This document shows, piece by piece, positions 5,904 through 57,415 of a DNA stretch of 64,000 nt; position 1 is the stretch's first letter, and every line of letters begins with the position of its first letter. A program made the translations under genes and the position numbers. This DNA is from a virus (lineage: Duplodnaviria; Heunggongvirae; Uroviricota; Caudoviricetes): the IMG/VR virus record IMGVR_UViG_3300042923_000186, positions 1 to 64,000 of that record; one strand, written 5' to 3'. The notes beneath the pieces were generated by a model, which searched no databases, was not told where the DNA came from, and worked only from the letters and a program-made list of their open reading frames with translations.

Positions 5904-5933
5904 TTGACATGTAGCTAGGTAGTGTGCTATTAT
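5904..5933 (+). promoter_or_regulatory. sigma70-like promoter P4 (TTGACA-18-TATTAT)
   Basis: Spacer tgtagctaggtagtgtgc. Confidence 0.5.
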
Positions 5934-5974
5934 CGCTACCTAGCTGACAAACACCACTGAACAAGGAGAACAAA

Positions 5975-12752: not shown

Positions 12753-12781
12753 TTGACATAGGTAGCTAGTTAGTGTAAGCT
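12753..12781 (+). promoter_or_regulatory. sigma70-like promoter P5 (TTGACA-17-TAAGCT)
   Basis: Spacer taggtagctagttagtg. Confidence 0.45.
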
Positions 12782-12834
12782 GCTAGCTACGTAACTAACC
12801 AGAGGCCACGGCTTCAATCTAAAGGAGAAACTAA

Positions 12835-14780: not shown

Positions 14781-14891
14781 ATGCTTACTATCGCAGTAAT
14801 TTTCTTGGCAATCTCGCTCTTCTGCGACGACTACAAGGGCGCAGCATTATGGGCGTTCTGTGGTGGCGTGATAGCAGTACTAGCTAACTAA
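14781..14891 (+). CDS. small membrane protein (36 aa)
   Basis: Single hydrophobic helix; weak RBS aaggg. Confidence 0.25.
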   Translation: MLTIAVIFLAISLFCDDYKGAALWAFCGGVIAVLAN

Positions 14892-14896
14892 CTAGC

Positions 14897-14925
14897 TTGA
14901 CAGGCCCATCATGCTCCGGTATGAT
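14897..14925 (+). promoter_or_regulatory. sigma70-like promoter P6 (TTGACA-17-TATGAT) embedded in a terminator hairpin
   Basis: The -10 hexamer lies within the 3' arm of the hairpin. Confidence 0.5.
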
Positions 14926-14935
14926 GGGCTTTTTC
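14905..14935 (+). terminator. rho-independent terminator
   Basis: Hairpin cccatcat-gctccggt-atgatggg followed by cTTTTTc. Near-identical copy at 32040-32070 with compensatory changes. Confidence 0.7.
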
Positions 14936-14969
14936 GTTAGGGTGAAGCCTAACCACTACAAGGAGAAAT

Positions 14970-16565
14970 ATGAAGCCAACTAACCAACAAGAGTATTGCA
15001 TCGAACTCGCCAAGGCCGAAGCTATGTCGAAGATCGAGGCCGGAGCCGGTGCAGGCAAGACCTCCACCCTGAAGCTTATTTCGGAGAACATCCCGGCCCG
15101 TAGCCTGTATCTGGCCTTCAACAAAGTCACGGCTGTCGAAGCAGAGGAACGCTTCCCGGCCCACGTAATGTGCATGACAACGCACAGCTTGGCCTACCGT
15201 GCCTTCGGTATTGCCCTGCAATCGAAGCTGTCTCGGCCGAAGGGTGCGTACAAGAACGTAGCAGGCACGGGTAGCGAGATTGCCCGCTTCTACGGTATCA
15301 AGGATGTCTACGGATTCGCCCGTGACCGTGTAGCTACCGCAGCAGCTATTGGCCTGTTCGTCAAGCAAACTGTGGAGAACTTCCAGCAGTCGGCGGATAG
15401 CAAGGTAGCCATGAAGCACGTCCCGTTCAAAGGAACTGAGAAGCTGCGTGAAGAGGCTCCTAGCTCCATCTCCGCTATCCATCAGTACGCCGTTAAGCTG
15501 TGGGAGGATCGTATCAATCCGGGTAGTGAGGTACTGGCTACGCACGATACCTACCTGAAACTGTACCAACTTTCAAAGCCTCGCCTGAGCTACGAAGTGC
15601 TGTACGTAGATGAATTCCAAGACACGACGCCATGCGTGTTAGATATCGTTCTTAACCAGAAGGACACGGCCAAGATCATCATCGTTGGCGACCGCCGTCA
15701 GGCCATCTACGGCTGGCGTGGTGCTGTCAATGCGATGCAAATGGTGGACTGCAAAACGGCTCCGCTGAGCCAGAGCTTCCGCTATGGTCAAGGCATTGCT
15801 GACGTTGCTAGCGCTGTGCTGGATCACGACATGACTCTGACAGGCCGGAAGGATATCAACTGCACCGTCGGCTTTGACGTAGTGGACCGGACCAAGCCTC
15901 ACATGTACCTGTTCCGCACGAATACGCTTTTGTTGATCGAGGCTGTAGAAGCTTTAGGGCGAGGCGAGAAGATCAAGATCGAGATTGACGTTAAAGACTT
16001 CGTGAAGATGCTCCAATCGGCAGATGCCTTGTACCGAGGTGACATTAAGAATGTCAAGCACGAGGAAATCCTTCCGTACGCCACGTGGTATGACTTTATC
16101 GAAGAAATGGAGCAGTCGTCCGGTGGACCGTTAAAACGTGTAGTCGGGATCATCGAAGGCGGAACAGTAGACAAGTTCATCGCCACACTGGAAAGCTACG
16201 TAGCCCCTGCAAGTGCCATCGCCACGTACACCACAGCCCACAAGGCCAAGGGACGCGAGGAAGAGCAAGTGATGCTGGCTGACGACTTCGCTTCGCACTA
16301 TGACAAGGGCGAGTGGAAAGGGTTGTCCGAGGCAGAACAAAACCTGCTGTACGTGGCTGTGACCCGTGCTAAACGTGTGCTGGGCATCAACCGCTCCGTG
16401 TGGGAGGTGATGGACAAGTTCAAGATGCCGTTCGCCGGTCAATCTGGCTACATCTCTCCTGAGAAGGTGGCAGCCATGTACGACGACATTATTCGGCGTG
16501 AGATTAGGAGCATGGAGCGGGTAATCAGCCCTGACAATGAATACGCCCGGTACATAGATCAATAA
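14970..16565 (+). CDS. UvrD/PcrA-like SF1 DNA helicase
   Basis: Walker A GAGAGKTSTL. VDEFQDT (motif II DExx). VGDRRQAIYGWRG (motif III). Confidence 0.8.
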   Translation: MKPTNQQEYCIELAKAEAMSKIEAGAGAGKTSTLKLISENIPARSLYLAFNKVTAVEAEERFPAHVMCMTTHSLAYRAFGIALQSKLSRPKGAYKNVAGTGSEIARFYGIKDVYGFARDRVATAAAIGLFVKQTVENFQQSADSKVAMKHVPFKGTEKLREEAPSSISAIHQYAVKLWEDRINPGSEVLATHDTYLKLYQLSKPRLSYEVLYVDEFQDTTPCVLDIVLNQKDTAKIIIVGDRRQAIYGWRGAVNAMQMVDCKTAPLSQSFRYGQGIADVASAVLDHDMTLTGRKDINCTVGFDVVDRTKPHMYLFRTNTLLLIEAVEALGRGEKIKIEIDVKDFVKMLQSADALYRGDIKNVKHEEILPYATWYDFIEEMEQSSGGPLKRVVGIIEGGTVDKFIATLESYVAPASAIATYTTAHKAKGREEEQVMLADDFASHYDKGEWKGLSEAEQNLLYVAVTRAKRVLGINRSVWEVMDKFKMPFAGQSGYISPEKVAAMYDDIIRREIRSMERVISPDNEYARYIDQ

Positions 16566-16574
16566 GGAGACGAG

Positions 16575-19067
16575 ATGGGATTGAGACTAGTATTTGATAC
16601 TGAAACAAAAAACCTTATCAACTCTGACACAGTTGACTACAACGCCTCGCCCTACTGCCTCAAAGACCCTCAGTTCATGCACTGTGCCGGTTTCAAGGAG
16701 TATGGCACTGACCGGCGTTGGTTCTTCGGACCAGAGGATGTCTACAACGGCAAGCTGAAGAAGTTCCTGCTGGAAGAGGACATTGACGAGCTTATCGGCC
16801 ACAACATCATCTCGTTTGACTTGCTGGCGTTGAAGCTGACGCTGGGCATCGACTACAGCATCGGCTGCTCGAAACTGGGCATCCCTGACATGGTAGGCGG
16901 AAGGCCGATCAAGATCACGGATACGCTGGTGCTGTCGAAGACGCTGAACCCTGACCGGCCACAGCACAGCATCGAGTACCACGGTCGCATTCTGGGCCTT
17001 GAGAAGATCGACTGGCGAGGCAAGGCTATCGAGATTGGGCTGATTGCGGCTGACGCACCGAAGGGTGCGGAGTTCCGGCAATACCATGAAGAGATGGGCG
17101 TGTACATGGTGCGAGACATTGACGTGAATGAACGTGTCTACACGATGTTGATGCGGGAGTGGGGAGACTGGGACTGGACTAGCGCGTTTGAACTGGAACA
17201 GGCCGTAGCCGAAATTATCACTCGGCAGGAGCATCGAGGGTTCAAGTTCGACCGGGAGAAGGCTGTAGAGAACGTCAAGTTCTTGGATGCGAAGATGGAA
17301 GAACTACGGCAGCTTGTTGAGCCGTTGATTCCGCCCAAGCCACTGACGAAGACGGCCCTGAACGACTACACGCCAGTGGAAAAGCAGTTCAAGAAGAACG
17401 GCGAGCCGACGACGCACATCCTCAACTTTGCCAAGAAGCACGGCGGAGAATTCGTAGAGGTGAACGGGGTATGGCAAGCTGTTCTGCATGGAAAGCACTA
17501 CACACTACCTATGCCAGCAGAGCCGATCTTCACGCACATGCCTGCAAAGCTGGACGACACGCTCCACATTAAGGAGTGGCTTGTCACGCTAGGATGGCAG
17601 CCTACGCAGTACAAGGAACGTGACCTGACCGTGGACAGCAAGAAGAAGAAGCTGACGCGAGAGAAGTTCGAAGTAGCGGTGGAAAAGTGGGTTGAACAGA
17701 CCTTCGCTAGCCCGTTCAAGTACGACCGGCTGGACGAACTGCCAGAGGACATGCGTGTCACTCGCTTGACGAACAAAGAGCGTGTGATGTCGAAGATTCT
17801 GGGCATCGATCACATGAAGCGGGCAATCAAGGTGTACACGAACCCAACCCTGACAGTCGGCATGGAAAAGGAGATTGATCCTAAGCTTGTGGAGATGGAA
17901 GATAAGTTCAAGTACGCCCGTGAAATCTCGGACTACCTGACGTACAAGCATCGACGCAACAGCATCTTGGGTGGTGGCATTGACCCAGATGATGACGAGG
18001 ACATGCAGAAGGGCTGGATGGCCGTAGATCGTATTAACGAGGACGGGCGGATACCTACCCCTGCCGATACGTGCGGAGCCGCTACAAGCCGGTTTAAACA
18101 CCGTCTGGTGGCTAATATCCCACGGGTCACGTCCAAGTACGGGAAAGAGATGCGAGCACTGTTCGGTGTGGACGACGGCTTCGTGCAGCTTGGCTACGAC
18201 TTCGACTCTCTGGAGGCGAAAATCGAGTCGCACTACGTCTACCGCTATCCGGGTGGACCTGAGTATGGTGTGTCGCTGACGGCTGAGAAGCCAAACGACT
18301 GCCACTCTGTGCTTGCAAAGCAGATTACGGAGTTGCTGGGGCGTCCGTTCCCTCGTGGTACGGCTAAGAACGTCAAGTACGGCTGTTCGTACAATGCCCA
18401 GATTGCTAGGGTAGCTAAGACAGTCGGCTGTAGCATCGAAGAGGCTACCATCATTTTCAATGCGTTCTGGGACCAAGCCTATCCGCTGAAGCAGTTGAAG
18501 GAGAAGATGCAGGAATACTGGGAGTCCGTAGGCGGTAAGCGGTTCCTGAAAGGCATCGACGGTCGTAAGCTGCCTATCCGAAGCAAGGGTAACGTCATCA
18601 ACACGGCGTTCCAGAGCGCAGGTGTTATCTGTGCCAAGCGGGCTATGGTGCTGCATGACCGTATGCTTCGAGAGGAAGGGCTGTTGATTGACTTCTTCAA
18701 GGACGATTGGAAAGCGAAGGTAGCTGACCGGGAGAAATTCTGTCAGCAGCTTATTGCCTACCACGACGAAGCCCAGCTTGAGGTTACACGGGCTAGCGTG
18801 CAGTGGAAGGTGTTCAAGATCGAGGATGGCGAGGACAGGGAAGCAGCCGAGAAAGCTGCGGAGAAGGCCGCTAAAGCCTTTAAAGCGGAGCAAACGGACA
18901 AGGTGTGGAGTGATGTTGGTCACACGGACAAGGTGTACTACGTCGGCTACTGCCGCGCCGGGGAACTGGCTACTATGGCTGTCAAGCAGGCTGGCGAGTA
19001 CTACAAGTTGAACGTGGAGCTGACGGCTGGCTACATGCTTGGAACTAACTGGGCAACTTGCCACTAA
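16575..19067 (+). CDS. family A DNA polymerase with 3'-5' exonuclease domain
   Basis: Exo I FDTET. Polymerase motif A-like YDFDSLEAKI. Motif C YHDEAQLE. Confidence 0.9.
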   Translation: MGLRLVFDTETKNLINSDTVDYNASPYCLKDPQFMHCAGFKEYGTDRRWFFGPEDVYNGKLKKFLLEEDIDELIGHNIISFDLLALKLTLGIDYSIGCSKLGIPDMVGGRPIKITDTLVLSKTLNPDRPQHSIEYHGRILGLEKIDWRGKAIEIGLIAADAPKGAEFRQYHEEMGVYMVRDIDVNERVYTMLMREWGDWDWTSAFELEQAVAEIITRQEHRGFKFDREKAVENVKFLDAKMEELRQLVEPLIPPKPLTKTALNDYTPVEKQFKKNGEPTTHILNFAKKHGGEFVEVNGVWQAVLHGKHYTLPMPAEPIFTHMPAKLDDTLHIKEWLVTLGWQPTQYKERDLTVDSKKKKLTREKFEVAVEKWVEQTFASPFKYDRLDELPEDMRVTRLTNKERVMSKILGIDHMKRAIKVYTNPTLTVGMEKEIDPKLVEMEDKFKYAREISDYLTYKHRRNSILGGGIDPDDDEDMQKGWMAVDRINEDGRIPTPADTCGAATSRFKHRLVANIPRVTSKYGKEMRALFGVDDGFVQLGYDFDSLEAKIESHYVYRYPGGPEYGVSLTAEKPNDCHSVLAKQITELLGRPFPRGTAKNVKYGCSYNAQIARVAKTVGCSIEEATIIFNAFWDQAYPLKQLKEKMQEYWESVGGKRFLKGIDGRKLPIRSKGNVINTAFQSAGVICAKRAMVLHDRMLREEGLLIDFFKDDWKAKVADREKFCQQLIAYHDEAQLEVTRASVQWKVFKIEDGEDREAAEKAAEKAAKAFKAEQTDKVWSDVGHTDKVYYVGYCRAGELATMAVKQAGEYYKLNVELTAGYMLGTNWATCH

Positions 19068-21739: not shown

Positions 21740-22121
21740 ACGTACGAAGGCTACCAAGGCCCAGAAGCGAGGCAAACGCCGAGCTAGGGCCAAGGACTAC
21801 GCCCTGATGCTCACAGCAGCTACGGCTGTCGTAGTGGACAACAGAGGCGTAGACGGTCAGCACCGGGCAGGAAACATAGCGTACGTACTTATGACCTTCC
21901 CTCACTGGGTGAAGTTCGCAGAGGACTTCCCTAAAGGGCACATCACGGTACGTACGCTACTTACAAACACCTACAAGGTGAACGCTGTAAAATTGCTCGA
22001 TTGGCTGTACAAGCACGGGCACAGTAGCTACAACGCTAGCATGCTAGTTCGAGGTACAAAGGACTTCGAATTGCTTGACGATAGCGTAGACAAGTTGCTG
22101 AGCCTTGACATAGTTAGCTAG
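21717..22121 (+). CDS. hypothetical protein
   Basis: Basic N-terminus; the true start may be an internal Met. Confidence 0.4.
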   Translation: MMSGRMARRTKATKAQKRGKRRARAKDYALMLTAATAVVVDNRGVDGQHRAGNIAYVLMTFPHWVKFAEDFPKGHITVRTLLTNTYKVNAVKLLDWLYKHGHSSYNASMLVRGTKDFELLDDSVDKLLSLDIVS

Positions 22122-22133
22122 CTAGTGTAGAAT
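22105..22133 (+). promoter_or_regulatory. sigma70-like promoter P8 (TTGACA-17-TAGAAT)
   Basis: Spacer tagttagctagctagtg; immediately upstream of the tRNA. Confidence 0.5.
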
Positions 22134-22147
22134 GCTGACTACAAACA

Positions 22148-22220
22148 CTCCCGGTAGCTCAAAGGATAGAGCACTGATCTTCTAAGTCAGGTGTTCCTTG
22201 TTCGAATCAAGGTCGGGAGG
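22148..22220 (+). tRNA. tRNA-Arg (anticodon TCT)
   Basis: Manually folded cloverleaf. 7-bp acceptor ctcccgg/tcgggag. D-arm GCTC-AAAGGATA-GAGC. Anticodon stem ctgat/gtcag with loop cTTCTaa. T-arm ccttg-TTCGAAT-caagg. Discriminator G then encoded CCA (22221-22223). Confidence 0.75.
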
Positions 22221-28896: not shown

Positions 28897-28925
28897 TTGC
28901 AAAGTAGCTGGGTGTATGGTACAAT
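28897..28925 (+). promoter_or_regulatory. sigma70-like promoter P9 (TTGCAA-17-TACAAT) upstream of the RNR operon
   Basis: Spacer agtagctgggtgtatgg. Confidence 0.5.
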
Positions 28926-28942
28926 AGCTGCCTAACACTGAA

Positions 28943-28966
28943 CGGGGGCTACGGCCCCCATTTTTA
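28943..28966 (+). terminator. terminator-like hairpin in the RNR leader
   Basis: gggggc-tacg-gccccc followed by aTTTTTa, located downstream of the P9 -10 and upstream of the nrdB RBS. Confidence 0.5.
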
Positions 28967-31764: not shown

Positions 31765-32013
31765 ATGAAACAACTAACTATCTACAGCATCGAGTCGTGC
31801 CCTAAGTGCGAGCAAGCAGCTAAGTTGCTAGCTAGCAAGGGAGTGAAGTTTGAAGTGATTAAGGCGGACGAAGACCCGTACGCGTACAACTTCATCACTG
31901 ACGAGGGCCACCGTAGCTTCCCGCAAATCTACGACGGAAAACGCCTGTTCGTAGTGGGAGGCTTCGCAGGACTCCAGAAGCTCGGCCCGGAGGCTTTCCG
32001 GGAATTTTATTGA
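31765..32013 (+). CDS. glutaredoxin/NrdH-like redoxin
   Basis: CPKC active site at residues 12-15; thioredoxin-fold length. Confidence 0.75.
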   Translation: MKQLTIYSIESCPKCEQAAKLLASKGVKFEVIKADEDPYAYNFITDEGHRSFPQIYDGKRLFVVGGFAGLQKLGPEAFREFY

Positions 32014-32031
32014 AATAGCTAGCTAACTAGC

Positions 32032-32060
32032 TTGACAGGCCCACTATGCTTCGGTATAGT
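32032..32060 (+). promoter_or_regulatory. sigma70-like promoter P10 (TTGACA-17-TATAGT) embedded in a terminator hairpin
   Basis: Twin of the P6 element. Confidence 0.5.
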
Positions 32061-32070
32061 GGGCTTTTTC
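32040..32070 (+). terminator. rho-independent terminator
   Basis: cccactat-gcttcggt-atagtggg followed by cTTTTTc. Confidence 0.7.
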
Positions 32071-32089
32071 GTTACTACAGGAGGAAATA

Positions 32090-32272
32090 ATGAATTCAGC
32101 AGACAAAATTGCCGCGTTCGTGATCGGAGCTTTGGTCATCACCTTTTCTGGCATTGTCTACCATGCCGAAACTCACAGGATCACGGACGAGGATATCCAA
32201 GCCGCTCGTACCAAATACGGCTGCGTTGCTACCAACAACTTCGTCGGCAAGTATGCTGTACTTGTGTGCTGA
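32090..32272 (+). CDS. small hypothetical membrane-associated protein
   Basis: RBS caggaggaaata before the ATG. Confidence 0.45.
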   Translation: MNSADKIAAFVIGALVITFSGIVYHAETHRITDEDIQAARTKYGCVATNNFVGKYAVLVC

Positions 32273-37267: not shown

Positions 37268-38902
37268 ATGCAAAACAAACCTCACTTAGCTTTAGATGGT
37301 TATAAAGCTAGTCATAAATTCCAGTACCCGGAAGGTACGCAGTACGTCTACTCGAACCTGACGGCCCGCTCCGCTGGTCACGCCAAAGTGTCCCGCTTCT
37401 TCGACAACAAGGCTGTCTTCGTGGGCCTGCAAGGCTTCATTCAGGAATTCCTGATCGAAGACTGGAACGCTGGCTTCTTCAAACGTCCGAAGGATGAAGT
37501 GGTGGCCGAATACAAACGCCGCATGGACACGTACCTCGGCCCTGACAGCGTGCCTGTAGATCACATCGCTGACCTGCATGACCTCGGCTACCTGCCGCTG
37601 GAAATCAAGGCGCTGCCTGAAGGCTCCCGCGTGGACATCCGTGTACCGTTCCTGACGATCATCAACACTGATCCTCGGTTCTTCTGGCTGACCAACTACA
37701 TCGAGACGATTCTGTCGGCAGAACTGTGGCAGCCAATCACGAACGCCACGGTAGCCTACGAGTTCCGCCGCCTGCTGAACCACTACGTGGAACTGACTGG
37801 CTCGGACAAGGACTTCGCTGACTGGCAACTGCACGACTTCTCCATGCGTGGCATGCCCGGCCTGCACGCTGCCGCTCGCTCCGGTATGGCTCACTTGATG
37901 GTGGCCGGTCACGGCACGGACACGTTGCCTGCAATCGACTACATCGAAGAGTACTACTTCGCTGATGCGACGAAGGAACTGATCGGCGGCAGCGTCCCTG
38001 CGACGGAACACAGCGTCATGTGCATGGGCGGTAAAGATGATGGCGAACTGGCTACGTTCAAGCGTCTGATCACGGAAACCTACCCCTCCGGTATCGTGTC
38101 CATCGTATCGGATACGTGGGACTTCTGGAACGTCATCACGAACACTGCCCTGCTGCTGAAGGATGACATTCTGGCTCGCAAAGAGAACGCACTGGGCCAA
38201 GCCAAAGTGGTGTTCCGTCCTGACTCGGGCGATCCTGTGAAGATCGTTGCTGGCCTTCGTGTTCTGGAAGTAGGCCCGCGACTTCCTGACGGAATGTCTG
38301 GTTACGATGCTGAAGATAAGTATGACGTTGTTAATTACGAAGGTAGGTACTATGAATTCAAAGGTGACAATACGGATGTCTTGACGCTCACACGAGAAGT
38401 TCCCGCACACGTCGTAGCCGGTGCTGTCGAATGCCTGTGGAACATCTTCGGTGGCACGATCACCGGAGCGCCATCTGGCAAGGGCTACAAGACCCTGAAC
38501 CAACGTGTCGGCCTGATCTACGGCGACAGCATTACGCTGGAACGCATGGAAGAAATCCTGAAGCGGCTTGCTGCTAAAGGCTTCAGTGCTGGCAACGTGG
38601 TGTTCGGTATCGGTTCGTACGCTTACCAGTACAACACCCGCGATACGCTGGGTATGGCTGTCAAGGCAACCTACGGCGTCGTCAACGGTGAAGGCCGGGA
38701 ACTGTTCAAAGACCCAGTGACGGACAGCGGCACTAAGAAGTCTGCTAAAGGCTTGCTGCGTGTGGAACAGATGGGCGACCGCTTTGCCCTGTACGACGGT
38801 GTTAACTGGTATCTGGAAGGCGGAGAACTGTGTCGCGTGTTCCGTAACGGCTTAGCTTTCAACCTGCAATCCTACGCTGAAATCGTGGCGAGGCTGAAGT
38901 GA
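37268..38902 (+). CDS. nicotinamide phosphoribosyltransferase (NAMPT/NadV)-like enzyme
   Basis: N-terminus LALDGYKASHKFQYPEGTQYVYSNLTARS resembles the NAMPT hallmark. Length 544 aa. RBS aaggagaaaattaa. Confidence 0.75.
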   Translation: MQNKPHLALDGYKASHKFQYPEGTQYVYSNLTARSAGHAKVSRFFDNKAVFVGLQGFIQEFLIEDWNAGFFKRPKDEVVAEYKRRMDTYLGPDSVPVDHIADLHDLGYLPLEIKALPEGSRVDIRVPFLTIINTDPRFFWLTNYIETILSAELWQPITNATVAYEFRRLLNHYVELTGSDKDFADWQLHDFSMRGMPGLHAAARSGMAHLMVAGHGTDTLPAIDYIEEYYFADATKELIGGSVPATEHSVMCMGGKDDGELATFKRLITETYPSGIVSIVSDTWDFWNVITNTALLLKDDILARKENALGQAKVVFRPDSGDPVKIVAGLRVLEVGPRLPDGMSGYDAEDKYDVVNYEGRYYEFKGDNTDVLTLTREVPAHVVAGAVECLWNIFGGTITGAPSGKGYKTLNQRVGLIYGDSITLERMEEILKRLAAKGFSAGNVVFGIGSYAYQYNTRDTLGMAVKATYGVVNGEGRELFKDPVTDSGTKKSAKGLLRVEQMGDRFALYDGVNWYLEGGELCRVFRNGLAFNLQSYAEIVARLK

Positions 38903-40521: not shown

Positions 40522-40550
40522 TTGACGGATGGGTAGGTAGCTAGTAAGAT
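40522..40550 (+). promoter_or_regulatory. sigma70-like promoter P13 (TTGACG-17-TAAGAT)
   Basis: Spacer gatgggtaggtagctag. Confidence 0.45.
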
Positions 40551-40576
40551 GGCTACTTACCTAACAAGGAGGATAC

Positions 40577-57386: not shown

Positions 57387-57415
57387 ATTATAGCCGAAGG
57401 TCGGCCATTTGTCAA
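57387..57415 (-). promoter_or_regulatory. consensus sigma70 promoter inside the late module (TTGACA-17-TATAAT)
   Basis: Minus strand TTGACAaatggccgaccttcggcTATAAT; RBS gaaagg then ATG at 57360. Confidence 0.6.

Follow-up and report, generated by a model that had tools for sequence, protein, structure and literature searches.

Two near-identical elements in which a promoter and a terminator share bases were identified in the window, the whole stretch of 64,000 nucleotides that was analyzed, which belongs to an 88.9-kb metagenomic contig of an uncultured phage clade with genomes of ~89 kb. Each element is probably a compact promoter-terminator cassette of the promoter-early stem-loop (PeSL) type, and a probability of about 0.72 is given to this reading. 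The fused design as such is already described, under the name of PeSLs, in T4-type phages (PMC2839356, PMC4122927).

Anatomy and setting of the two elements

A 48-nt degenerate pattern, CTAGCTTGACAGGCCCAYYATGCTYCGGTATRRTGGGCTTTTTCGTTA, was searched over the whole window and gave exactly two matches (14892-14939 and 32027-32074, both on the + strand), with none in 100 dinucleotide-preserving shuffles, which confirms the twin promoter-in-terminator elements put forward in the sequence-only reading. Nowhere else in the window does a promoter call overlap a terminator call. A covariance model based on the element recovered just the two copies in the window, and none in a further 11.6 kb of flanking sequence from a second assembly of this phage. 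The promoters are TTGACA-17-TATGAT in copy 1 and TTGACA-17-TATAGT in copy 2, each agreeing with the consensus at 11 of 12 positions; direct reading, together with promoter and terminator scans, placed the -10 inside the 3' arm of the terminator hairpin, as had been proposed (Table 1). Each hairpin has 13 pairs, six of them G-C (in copy 1, two are G.U), a C(UCCG)G or C(UUCG)G tetraloop, and TTTTT directly 3'. This is the layout of an intrinsic terminator, with a G+C-rich hairpin and an adjoining U tract on the same strand as the upstream genes. Based on standard sigma-70 geometry, the embedded promoter of copy 1 is predicted to start at about 14932, 7 nt past the -10 and within the T5 run. Folded as + strand RNA, copies 1 and 2 gave -28.3 kcal/mol (z = -4.8) and -28.4 kcal/mol (z = -5.1), respectively, while the opposite strand reached only -19.4 and -21.9 kcal/mol, with the tetraloop and the G.U pairs lost.

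The two copies differ at five positions, which comprise two adjacent stem pairs and the variable base of the UNCG loop (C14916 in copy 1, T32051 in copy 2); the remaining 43 positions, flanks included, are the same. In the stem, T14909/C14910 of copy 1 correspond to C32044/T32045 of copy 2, and their partners A14924/G14923 to G32059/A32058. The pairs read U-A/C-G in copy 1 and C-G/U-A in copy 2, exactly the paired, pairing-preserving changes that had been claimed.

Table 1. Coordinates of the fused elements, their neighbouring signals and related features. Positions are those of the window unless a relative is named.
Feature	Position	Strand	Basis or remark
Stop-rich motif CTAGCTAACTAACTAGC	14880-14896	+	directly 5' of copy 1 -35; read directly
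Copy 1 -35 hexamer, TTGACA	14897-14902	+	read directly, promoter scan
Copy 1 hairpin	14902-14931	+	terminator scan, RNA fold, covariation
Copy 1 hairpin, 5' arm	14902-14914	+	
Copy 1 hairpin, UCCG loop	14915-14918	+	
Copy 1 hairpin, 3' arm	14919-14931	+	
Copy 1 -10 hexamer, TATGAT	14920-14925	+	entirely within hairpin 3' arm
Copy 1 T5 run	14930-14934	+	terminator scan; predicted RNA release site for upstream transcripts
Shine-Dalgarno AAGGAGA and helicase ATG	14959-14972	+	
Stop-rich motif ATAGCTAGCTAACTAGC	32015-32031	+	5' of copy 2 -35, just past glutaredoxin stop
Copy 2 -35 hexamer, TTGACA	32032-32037	+	
Copy 2 hairpin	32037-32066	+	terminator scan, RNA fold
Copy 2 hairpin, 5' arm	32037-32049	+	
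Copy 2 hairpin, UUCG loop	32050-32053	+	
Copy 2 hairpin, 3' arm	32054-32066	+	
Copy 2 -10 hexamer, TATAGT	32055-32060	+	within 3' arm
Copy 2 T5 run	32065-32069	+	predicted termination/start zone; putative start site
Shine-Dalgarno AGGAGG and 60-aa ORF	32079-32272	+	ORF 32090-32272
Site 1 fused element, L003			TTGACAagcccgttctgcttcggTAGAATgggctttcc
Site 1 fused element, L004			TTGACAaagccactatgcttaggTATAGTggctttttt
Site 1 fused element, L091			TTGACAggcccgttgtacttcggTACAATgggtctttctt
Hydrophobic peptide gene, window	14781-14891	+	
Hydrophobic peptide gene, L003	9814-9924		
Hydrophobic peptide gene, L004	3338-3445		
Hydrophobic peptide gene, L090	9598-9705		
Hydrophobic peptide gene, L331	2615-2722		
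Promoters	820, 2593, 4981, 5904, 12753, 14897, 19276, 22105, 26143, 32032, 34024, 35770, 39113, 40522	+	
Promoters	57415, 62848	-	
TAG-word promoters	2593, 4981, 5904, 12753, 19276, 22105, 26143, 34024, 40522	+	
TAG-word promoter	57415	-	
TTGACA-18-TATTAT	5904-5949	+	~13-bp stem 5910-5949, -10 in loop, no U tract
TTGACA-17-TAAGCT	12753-12793	+	stem GTAGCTAG/CTAGCTAC around -10, no U tract; -17.1 kcal/mol
TTGACG-17-TAAGAT	40522-40565	+	14-bp stem, -10 in loop and 3' arm, no U tract

All genes from about 0.9 to 41 kb are on the + strand. The first element (site 1) lies within a conserved replication module, between a 36-aa hydrophobic ORF (14781-14891) and the gene for a UvrD-like helicase (14970-16565), both +, the latter being followed by the gene for DNA polymerase A (family A; 16575-19067, +). 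The second element (site 2) lies between the glutaredoxin gene (31765-32013; stop 32011-32013), which comes after two ribonucleotide reductase (RNR) subunits, and a 60-aa ORF (32090-32272, +). This ORF is an ORFan with no homologue among the ORFs at the same slot in relatives, and the gene content after site 2 differs among them. The temporal label 'late-early block', which the sequence-only reading had given to the site 2 genes, was without support. The motif CTAGCTAACTAACTAGC upstream of copy 1 has stops in all three frames and holds the TAA stop (14889-14891) of the 36-aa ORF. It is a stop-rich CTAG motif, with 10 of 17 nt A/T, and no plain AT tract; it is also found 5' of the orthologous elements in the relatives L003 and L004.

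Other features were noted around the two sites. The gene for a 35-36-aa hydrophobic peptide directly 5' of site 1 is conserved across relatives, and L090 and L331 have an additional 60-aa ORF between this gene and the terminator. Within the last glutaredoxin codons (31986-32002, +) there is a second terminator-like hairpin, CCCGGAGGCTTTCCGGG then AATTTTATTG, which is 35 nt 5' of the second fused element and may constitute a tandem terminator with it. In some clade members (P0148, P0160, P0192, P0193, P0208 and P0216) the RNR large subunit is ~900 aa long and contains intein/homing-endonuclease domains (PF14528, PF14890), which are not present in the product of the 578-aa gene of the window. 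An Rfam search over the window revealed no family at the fused elements; the sole match was a tRNA gene (22148-22220, +; RF00005, 56 bits), located ~15 nt 3' of a strong promoter at 22105-22133.

About 16 sites of the TTGACA-17-TAnnnT type precede genes in the window. The spacers of most of these promoters are rich in TAGCTAG or GTAGGTAG, and only in the twin elements is the spacer swapped for a G+C-rich stem. At the promoters at 5904, 12753, 39113 and 40522 a strong stem encloses the -10 without a U tract (-21.1 kcal/mol for the stem at 5904-5949 and -22.5 kcal/mol for that at 40522-40565, z = -3.9 in both cases). The genome has a wider range of stem-loops embedded in promoters, of which the twin elements form one class, the terminator-bearing one. 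An ordinary tandem arrangement is also present, with a terminator at 2539-2568 and then a separate promoter at 2593.

TAG words (TAGCTAG, GTAGGTAG and TAGATAG) build the promoter spacers and the bases just 5' of the -35, and promoters of this kind are also present in L003, L004, L085, L095, L096 and L107. Since TAG often recurs every 4 nt, stop codons result in all three frames. TAGCTAG was seen 23 times against 3.8 expected, and clusters of TAG on the + strand fall at promoters; the two fused elements have their stop-rich motif 5' of the -35 instead of in the spacer. At 28897-28959 (+), just 5' of the gene for the RNR small subunit (28983), a promoter-like site (TTGCAA-17-TACAAT) is combined with a perfect GGGGGC-UACG-GCCCCC hairpin and ATTTTT that begin no more than 20 nt after it, the stem being 3' of the -10. 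The promoter at 57387-57415 (-), TTGACA-17-TATAAT, agrees with the consensus at 12 of 12 positions and carries a small GCCGA-CCU-UCGGC hairpin in the spacer, with CTAGCTAGCTA as its upstream flank.

Related genomes and covariation of the stem

Metagenomic relatives, with helicases of 55-74% amino acid identity, were gathered by exact protein look-up and IMG/VR scans, in which the clade was represented by more than 100 contigs of 85-93 kb. The fused design was found in them at the same two slots, 5' of the UvrD-like helicase and 3' of glutaredoxin, in stems of different sequence which keep the pairing and the TAnnnT of the -10. Site 1 is split in L092, L095, L096, L097/L103, L107 and L331, where a UNCG-loop terminator is followed 15-25 nt later by a separate promoter. 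In L090 the site 1 hairpin is retained with a vestigial TAAGAT, the -35 is deleted and a new promoter lies ~25 nt downstream. Taken together, the fused, split and L090 states suggest that both functions were maintained at site 1, and both terminator and promoter appear to be needed at this slot. At site 2, fused UNCG elements with U tracts were identified in L085, L087, L330, L174 and L176/L180, and stems around the -10 with no U tract in L086, L169/L170, L172, L175, L178 and L240. In the L003 orthologue the stem is followed by just UUUCC.

Exact and half-degenerate patterns of the element had no match in IMG/VR, and the sole match of a transition-tolerant pattern was the L091 contig, with one copy. 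Scanning of metagenomes with generic peptide patterns from the helicase alignment returned mostly distant helicases, none closer than 50%. The L091 contig was not among the matches of scans with the two RNR subunits, large and small, and L091 is covered at site 1 only. The 6 kb around site 1 had no megablast match among 50,697 phage records. The best protein matches in cultured phages, ~52% for PolA and at most 50% for the helicase, are in unrelated genera; Aeromonas phage PAc and Pseudomonas phage CHA_P1, which gave the best PolA matches, are without the UvrD-helicase synteny and have no comparable slot. An ONT-cappable-seq paper on the distant relative PAK_P3 contains no description of fused promoter-terminators.

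The same phage was observed at 100% identity in a second sample (L249 and L250, Logan SRR35179801), where the two contigs break and overlap at about window positions 37,680-37,707. The 7.3 kb that follow the window end contain genes for a serine recombinase (Resolvase and Recombinase domains) and an ANT-domain protein, which hints at a temperate or integrative capacity.

Covariation was scored on a plain (unfitted) MAFFT alignment of 10 fused elements, with the helix taken from copy 1 of the window. Every one of the 10 retains TAnnnT at the -10, and both sides have changed in 6 of the 13 pairs. The covariation score was 0.381, compared with 0.253 +/- 0.025 in shuffles, none of 500 reaching the observed value, and the pairing collapses when the 3' partner is slid by one to three columns. 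This estimate is conservative, since three sequences with a one-base register shift were scored as unpaired. A covariance model built from six elements recovered more fused or half-decayed copies in relatives (L171, L178); in the alignment fitted to it, 98% of the cells are paired and 11 of the 13 pairs show compensatory changes, figures that are biased towards the model by construction, with a few ordinary terminators included. Between the orthologues L330 and L087 there are two transversion double changes, G-C to C-G and A-U to U-A, for which no path via a wobble intermediate exists. Recurrent G.U pairs are confined to the + strand. Along with the UNCG loops and the asymmetry between the strands, they argue that the selected structure is the + strand RNA and not the DNA.

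Comparison between the genomes shows selection on the stem and, on the very bases that the two share, on the -10 signature. The -10 keeps T1, A2 and T6 fixed, and its positions 3-5 change in concert with the 5' arm bases that they pair with. Both a promoter and an element resembling a terminator are retained at these slots. The proposal that the structure itself is selected is supported by the fused orthologues at both slots, with their pairing stems and invariant TAnnnT.

With respect to the relationship between the two window copies, their cores are 88% identical to each other, and copy 1 is 70-76% identical to the site 1 orthologues. The stem core of copy 2, CACTATGC/GTATAGTG, is common to the site 1 element of L004. 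On contig Ga0618282 (L090, L087) the site 1 hairpin is a near-exact copy of the site 2 hairpin of the same genome; in the L331 genome the site 2 element (L330) is closely related to L087, and site 1 is an unrelated split terminator. The comparison of these two genomes suggests that the module was copied or gene-converted between slots. By analogy to this one clear case among the relatives, the window copies, which are paralogues, most likely arose through copying or gene conversion from one conserved intergenic slot to the other.

Proposed function and alternative explanations

Judging from the anatomy, transcripts from the upstream + strand genes would fold the 13-bp UNCG-capped hairpin and be released at the T5 run. 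The same DNA would function as a near-consensus sigma-70 promoter, with its -35 next to the 5' arm and its -10 within the 3' arm. The new transcript would start in or just past the T run, would not contain the hairpin and would thereby escape termination. Restart at site 1 would lead to transcription of the helicase and DNA polymerase genes, and restart at site 2 to that of the small genes that follow glutaredoxin. The anatomy and the analogy with the PeSLs that have been tested predict both termination at the T run and restart from the embedded promoter, and the split terminator and promoter in the slots of relatives fit a stop-and-restart role. Several points count against the cassette. It has a short U tract, with CG after only 5 U, and the tail of the L003 orthologue is weaker still (UUUCC); several site 2 relatives have stems without a U tract, so termination cannot be the conserved role there; and the predicted start nucleotide is a T in the T run, which is not a preferred initiating base.

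In a second explanation, the main role of the conserved RNA hairpin would be in processing or stability (as a 3'-end protector or an RNase III target on read-through transcripts), the hairpin would terminate inefficiently, and its overlap with the promoter would be an incidental compaction. Several orthologous slots with a stem around the -10 and no U tract, the weak UUUCC tail in L003, and the other window promoters with strong stems but no U tract are in its favour. Nevertheless, the window copies and most fused relatives combine a G+C-rich stem, a UNCG loop and an adjacent T4-T6 run, and the split relatives carry canonical UNCG terminators in the same slot, so that this explanation is considered unlikely.

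A more specific version of the stop-and-restart cassette would make the overlap itself functional: release would occur at the start site, and host RNA polymerase in a recycling mode would be passed straight to the embedded promoter. This is a speculative and rather improbable step beyond the cassette as proposed. If true, the element would reset the 5' end of the transcript, insulate the transcription units and conserve polymerase flux, and would represent the extreme, zero-distance case of facilitated reinitiation. A related and likewise speculative possibility is that a phage factor recognizes the genome-specific hairpin and switches read-through during infection, which would explain why the copies are alike within a genome and the genomes differ.

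It is very unlikely that the inverted repeat acts as DNA, whether as an operator, bound by a dimeric regulator of phage or host origin, or as a supercoil-driven cruciform that hides the -10 and shuts the promoter off. The repeat does overlap the core promoter, and copies that are near-identical within a genome and different between genomes are what would be expected for a genome-specific protein. However, the recurrent G.T/T.G oppositions of the + strand are A.C mismatches on the other strand, which folds 6-9 kcal/mol worse; the UNCG loops and the T run are features of RNA; and the stem sequence varies freely if pairing holds, with neither perfect DNA dyad symmetry nor a conserved arm sequence being found. 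An operator or cruciform was rejected on the G.U pairs, the UNCG loops and the freely varying, compensated arms.

Compensatory changes in quasi-palindromes can also arise via template switching instead of selection. The least probable explanation, that the window holds a recent duplicate without a selected structure whose paired differences stem from a single template switch, draws on the closeness of the two cores (nearer to each other than to most orthologues) and on the copying between slots in one relative, but it is contradicted by pairing held in many independent, strongly diverged stems (in relatives of 55-75% protein identity), by the transversion double changes, by persistent G.U pairs, which argue against homogenization by templated repair, and by the fact that unpaired or decayed stems were not seen at these slots in relatives. 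A hairpin promoter of the N4 type for a virion RNA polymerase was also set aside, the elements having full sigma-70 boxes like the other promoters of the genome.

Read as PeSL-type cassettes, the elements would show that such fused designs are not confined to T4-type phages but occur also in an unrelated clade of uncultured phages of ~89 kb, and would suggest that the design is a recurrent solution for phages relying on the host sigma-70 polymerase. The comparative series is an unusually clean natural case of one DNA stretch with two readable constraints, and in it a single orthologous slot is seen fused, split or half-decayed. As insulator parts of about 40 nt the elements may be of use in synthetic biology, and they offer a natural substrate for tests of termination-coupled reinitiation.

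Comparison with known systems

PeSLs were described in the T4-type phages RB49/phi1, PST/T4 and nt-1/KVP40 (Arbiol et al. 2010, PMC2839356; Comeau et al. 2014, PMC4122927). Their layout consists of an upstream stop codon, a sigma-70-like promoter, a stem-loop, a Shine-Dalgarno sequence and an ATG, with the stem-loop most often between the -35 and -10 or overlapping the -10 and read as a terminator or attenuator (PMC2839356, PMC4122927). For RB49/phi1 PeSLs both promoter and terminator activities were demonstrated in lacZ assays (PMC2839356). Positional subclasses, degraded 'half' elements, association with ORFans, and recombination between copies or shuffling have also been reported (PMC2839356, PMC4122927). 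In the searchable literature the term is confined to three papers, each of them on T4-type phages.

Both window elements share with PeSLs the intergenic order, from the stop codon (14889-14891 and 32011-32013) to the Shine-Dalgarno sequence and ATG (14970 and 32090), the near-consensus sigma-70-type promoter between ORFs, and a stable stem-loop, here a 13-bp stem across the spacer and the -10. When 40 kb of RB49 was analyzed with the same script as the window, the same three classes were recovered: stems lying in the spacer, stems whose loop holds the -10, and a single element in which the 3' arm overlaps the -10 and a T run follows. In contrast to PeSLs, the window elements have no sequence relationship to the T4-type elements and reside in a genome which is not T4-type (Straboviridae). 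PeSLs occur in dozens of copies, preferentially in hyperplastic regions next to ORFans; here only two terminator-type copies are present in about 75 kb, along with several other promoters that carry embedded stems, and site 1 lies in a conserved replication module, while site 2 precedes an ORFan and variable gene content. The stems are of 12-14 bp with UNCG tetraloops rather than of the Gn-loop-Cn form, and the sequence upstream of the -35 reads as a CTAG/TAA all-frame stop motif more than as simply AT-rich. By analogy, the window elements would work like PeSLs but are not homologous to the T4-type ones.

An ordinary tandem terminator-promoter has the same order of functions, and relatives use the tandem form at the same slot; in the window elements, however, the signals share bases: the terminator stem includes the -10, and the predicted points of release and initiation coincide. 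In recycling termination or facilitated reinitiation, as Kang 2020 and Harden 2020 are presented in PMC11347151, RNA polymerase stays on the DNA and reinitiates at the nearest promoter. The window elements likewise have a hairpin terminator close to a promoter using host RNA polymerase, but in them terminator and promoter overlap. Finally, the morons of lambdoid phages resemble the window elements in having self-contained transcription signals which insulate inserted genes, although the promoter and terminator of a moron flank the gene and are unfused (PMC2839356).
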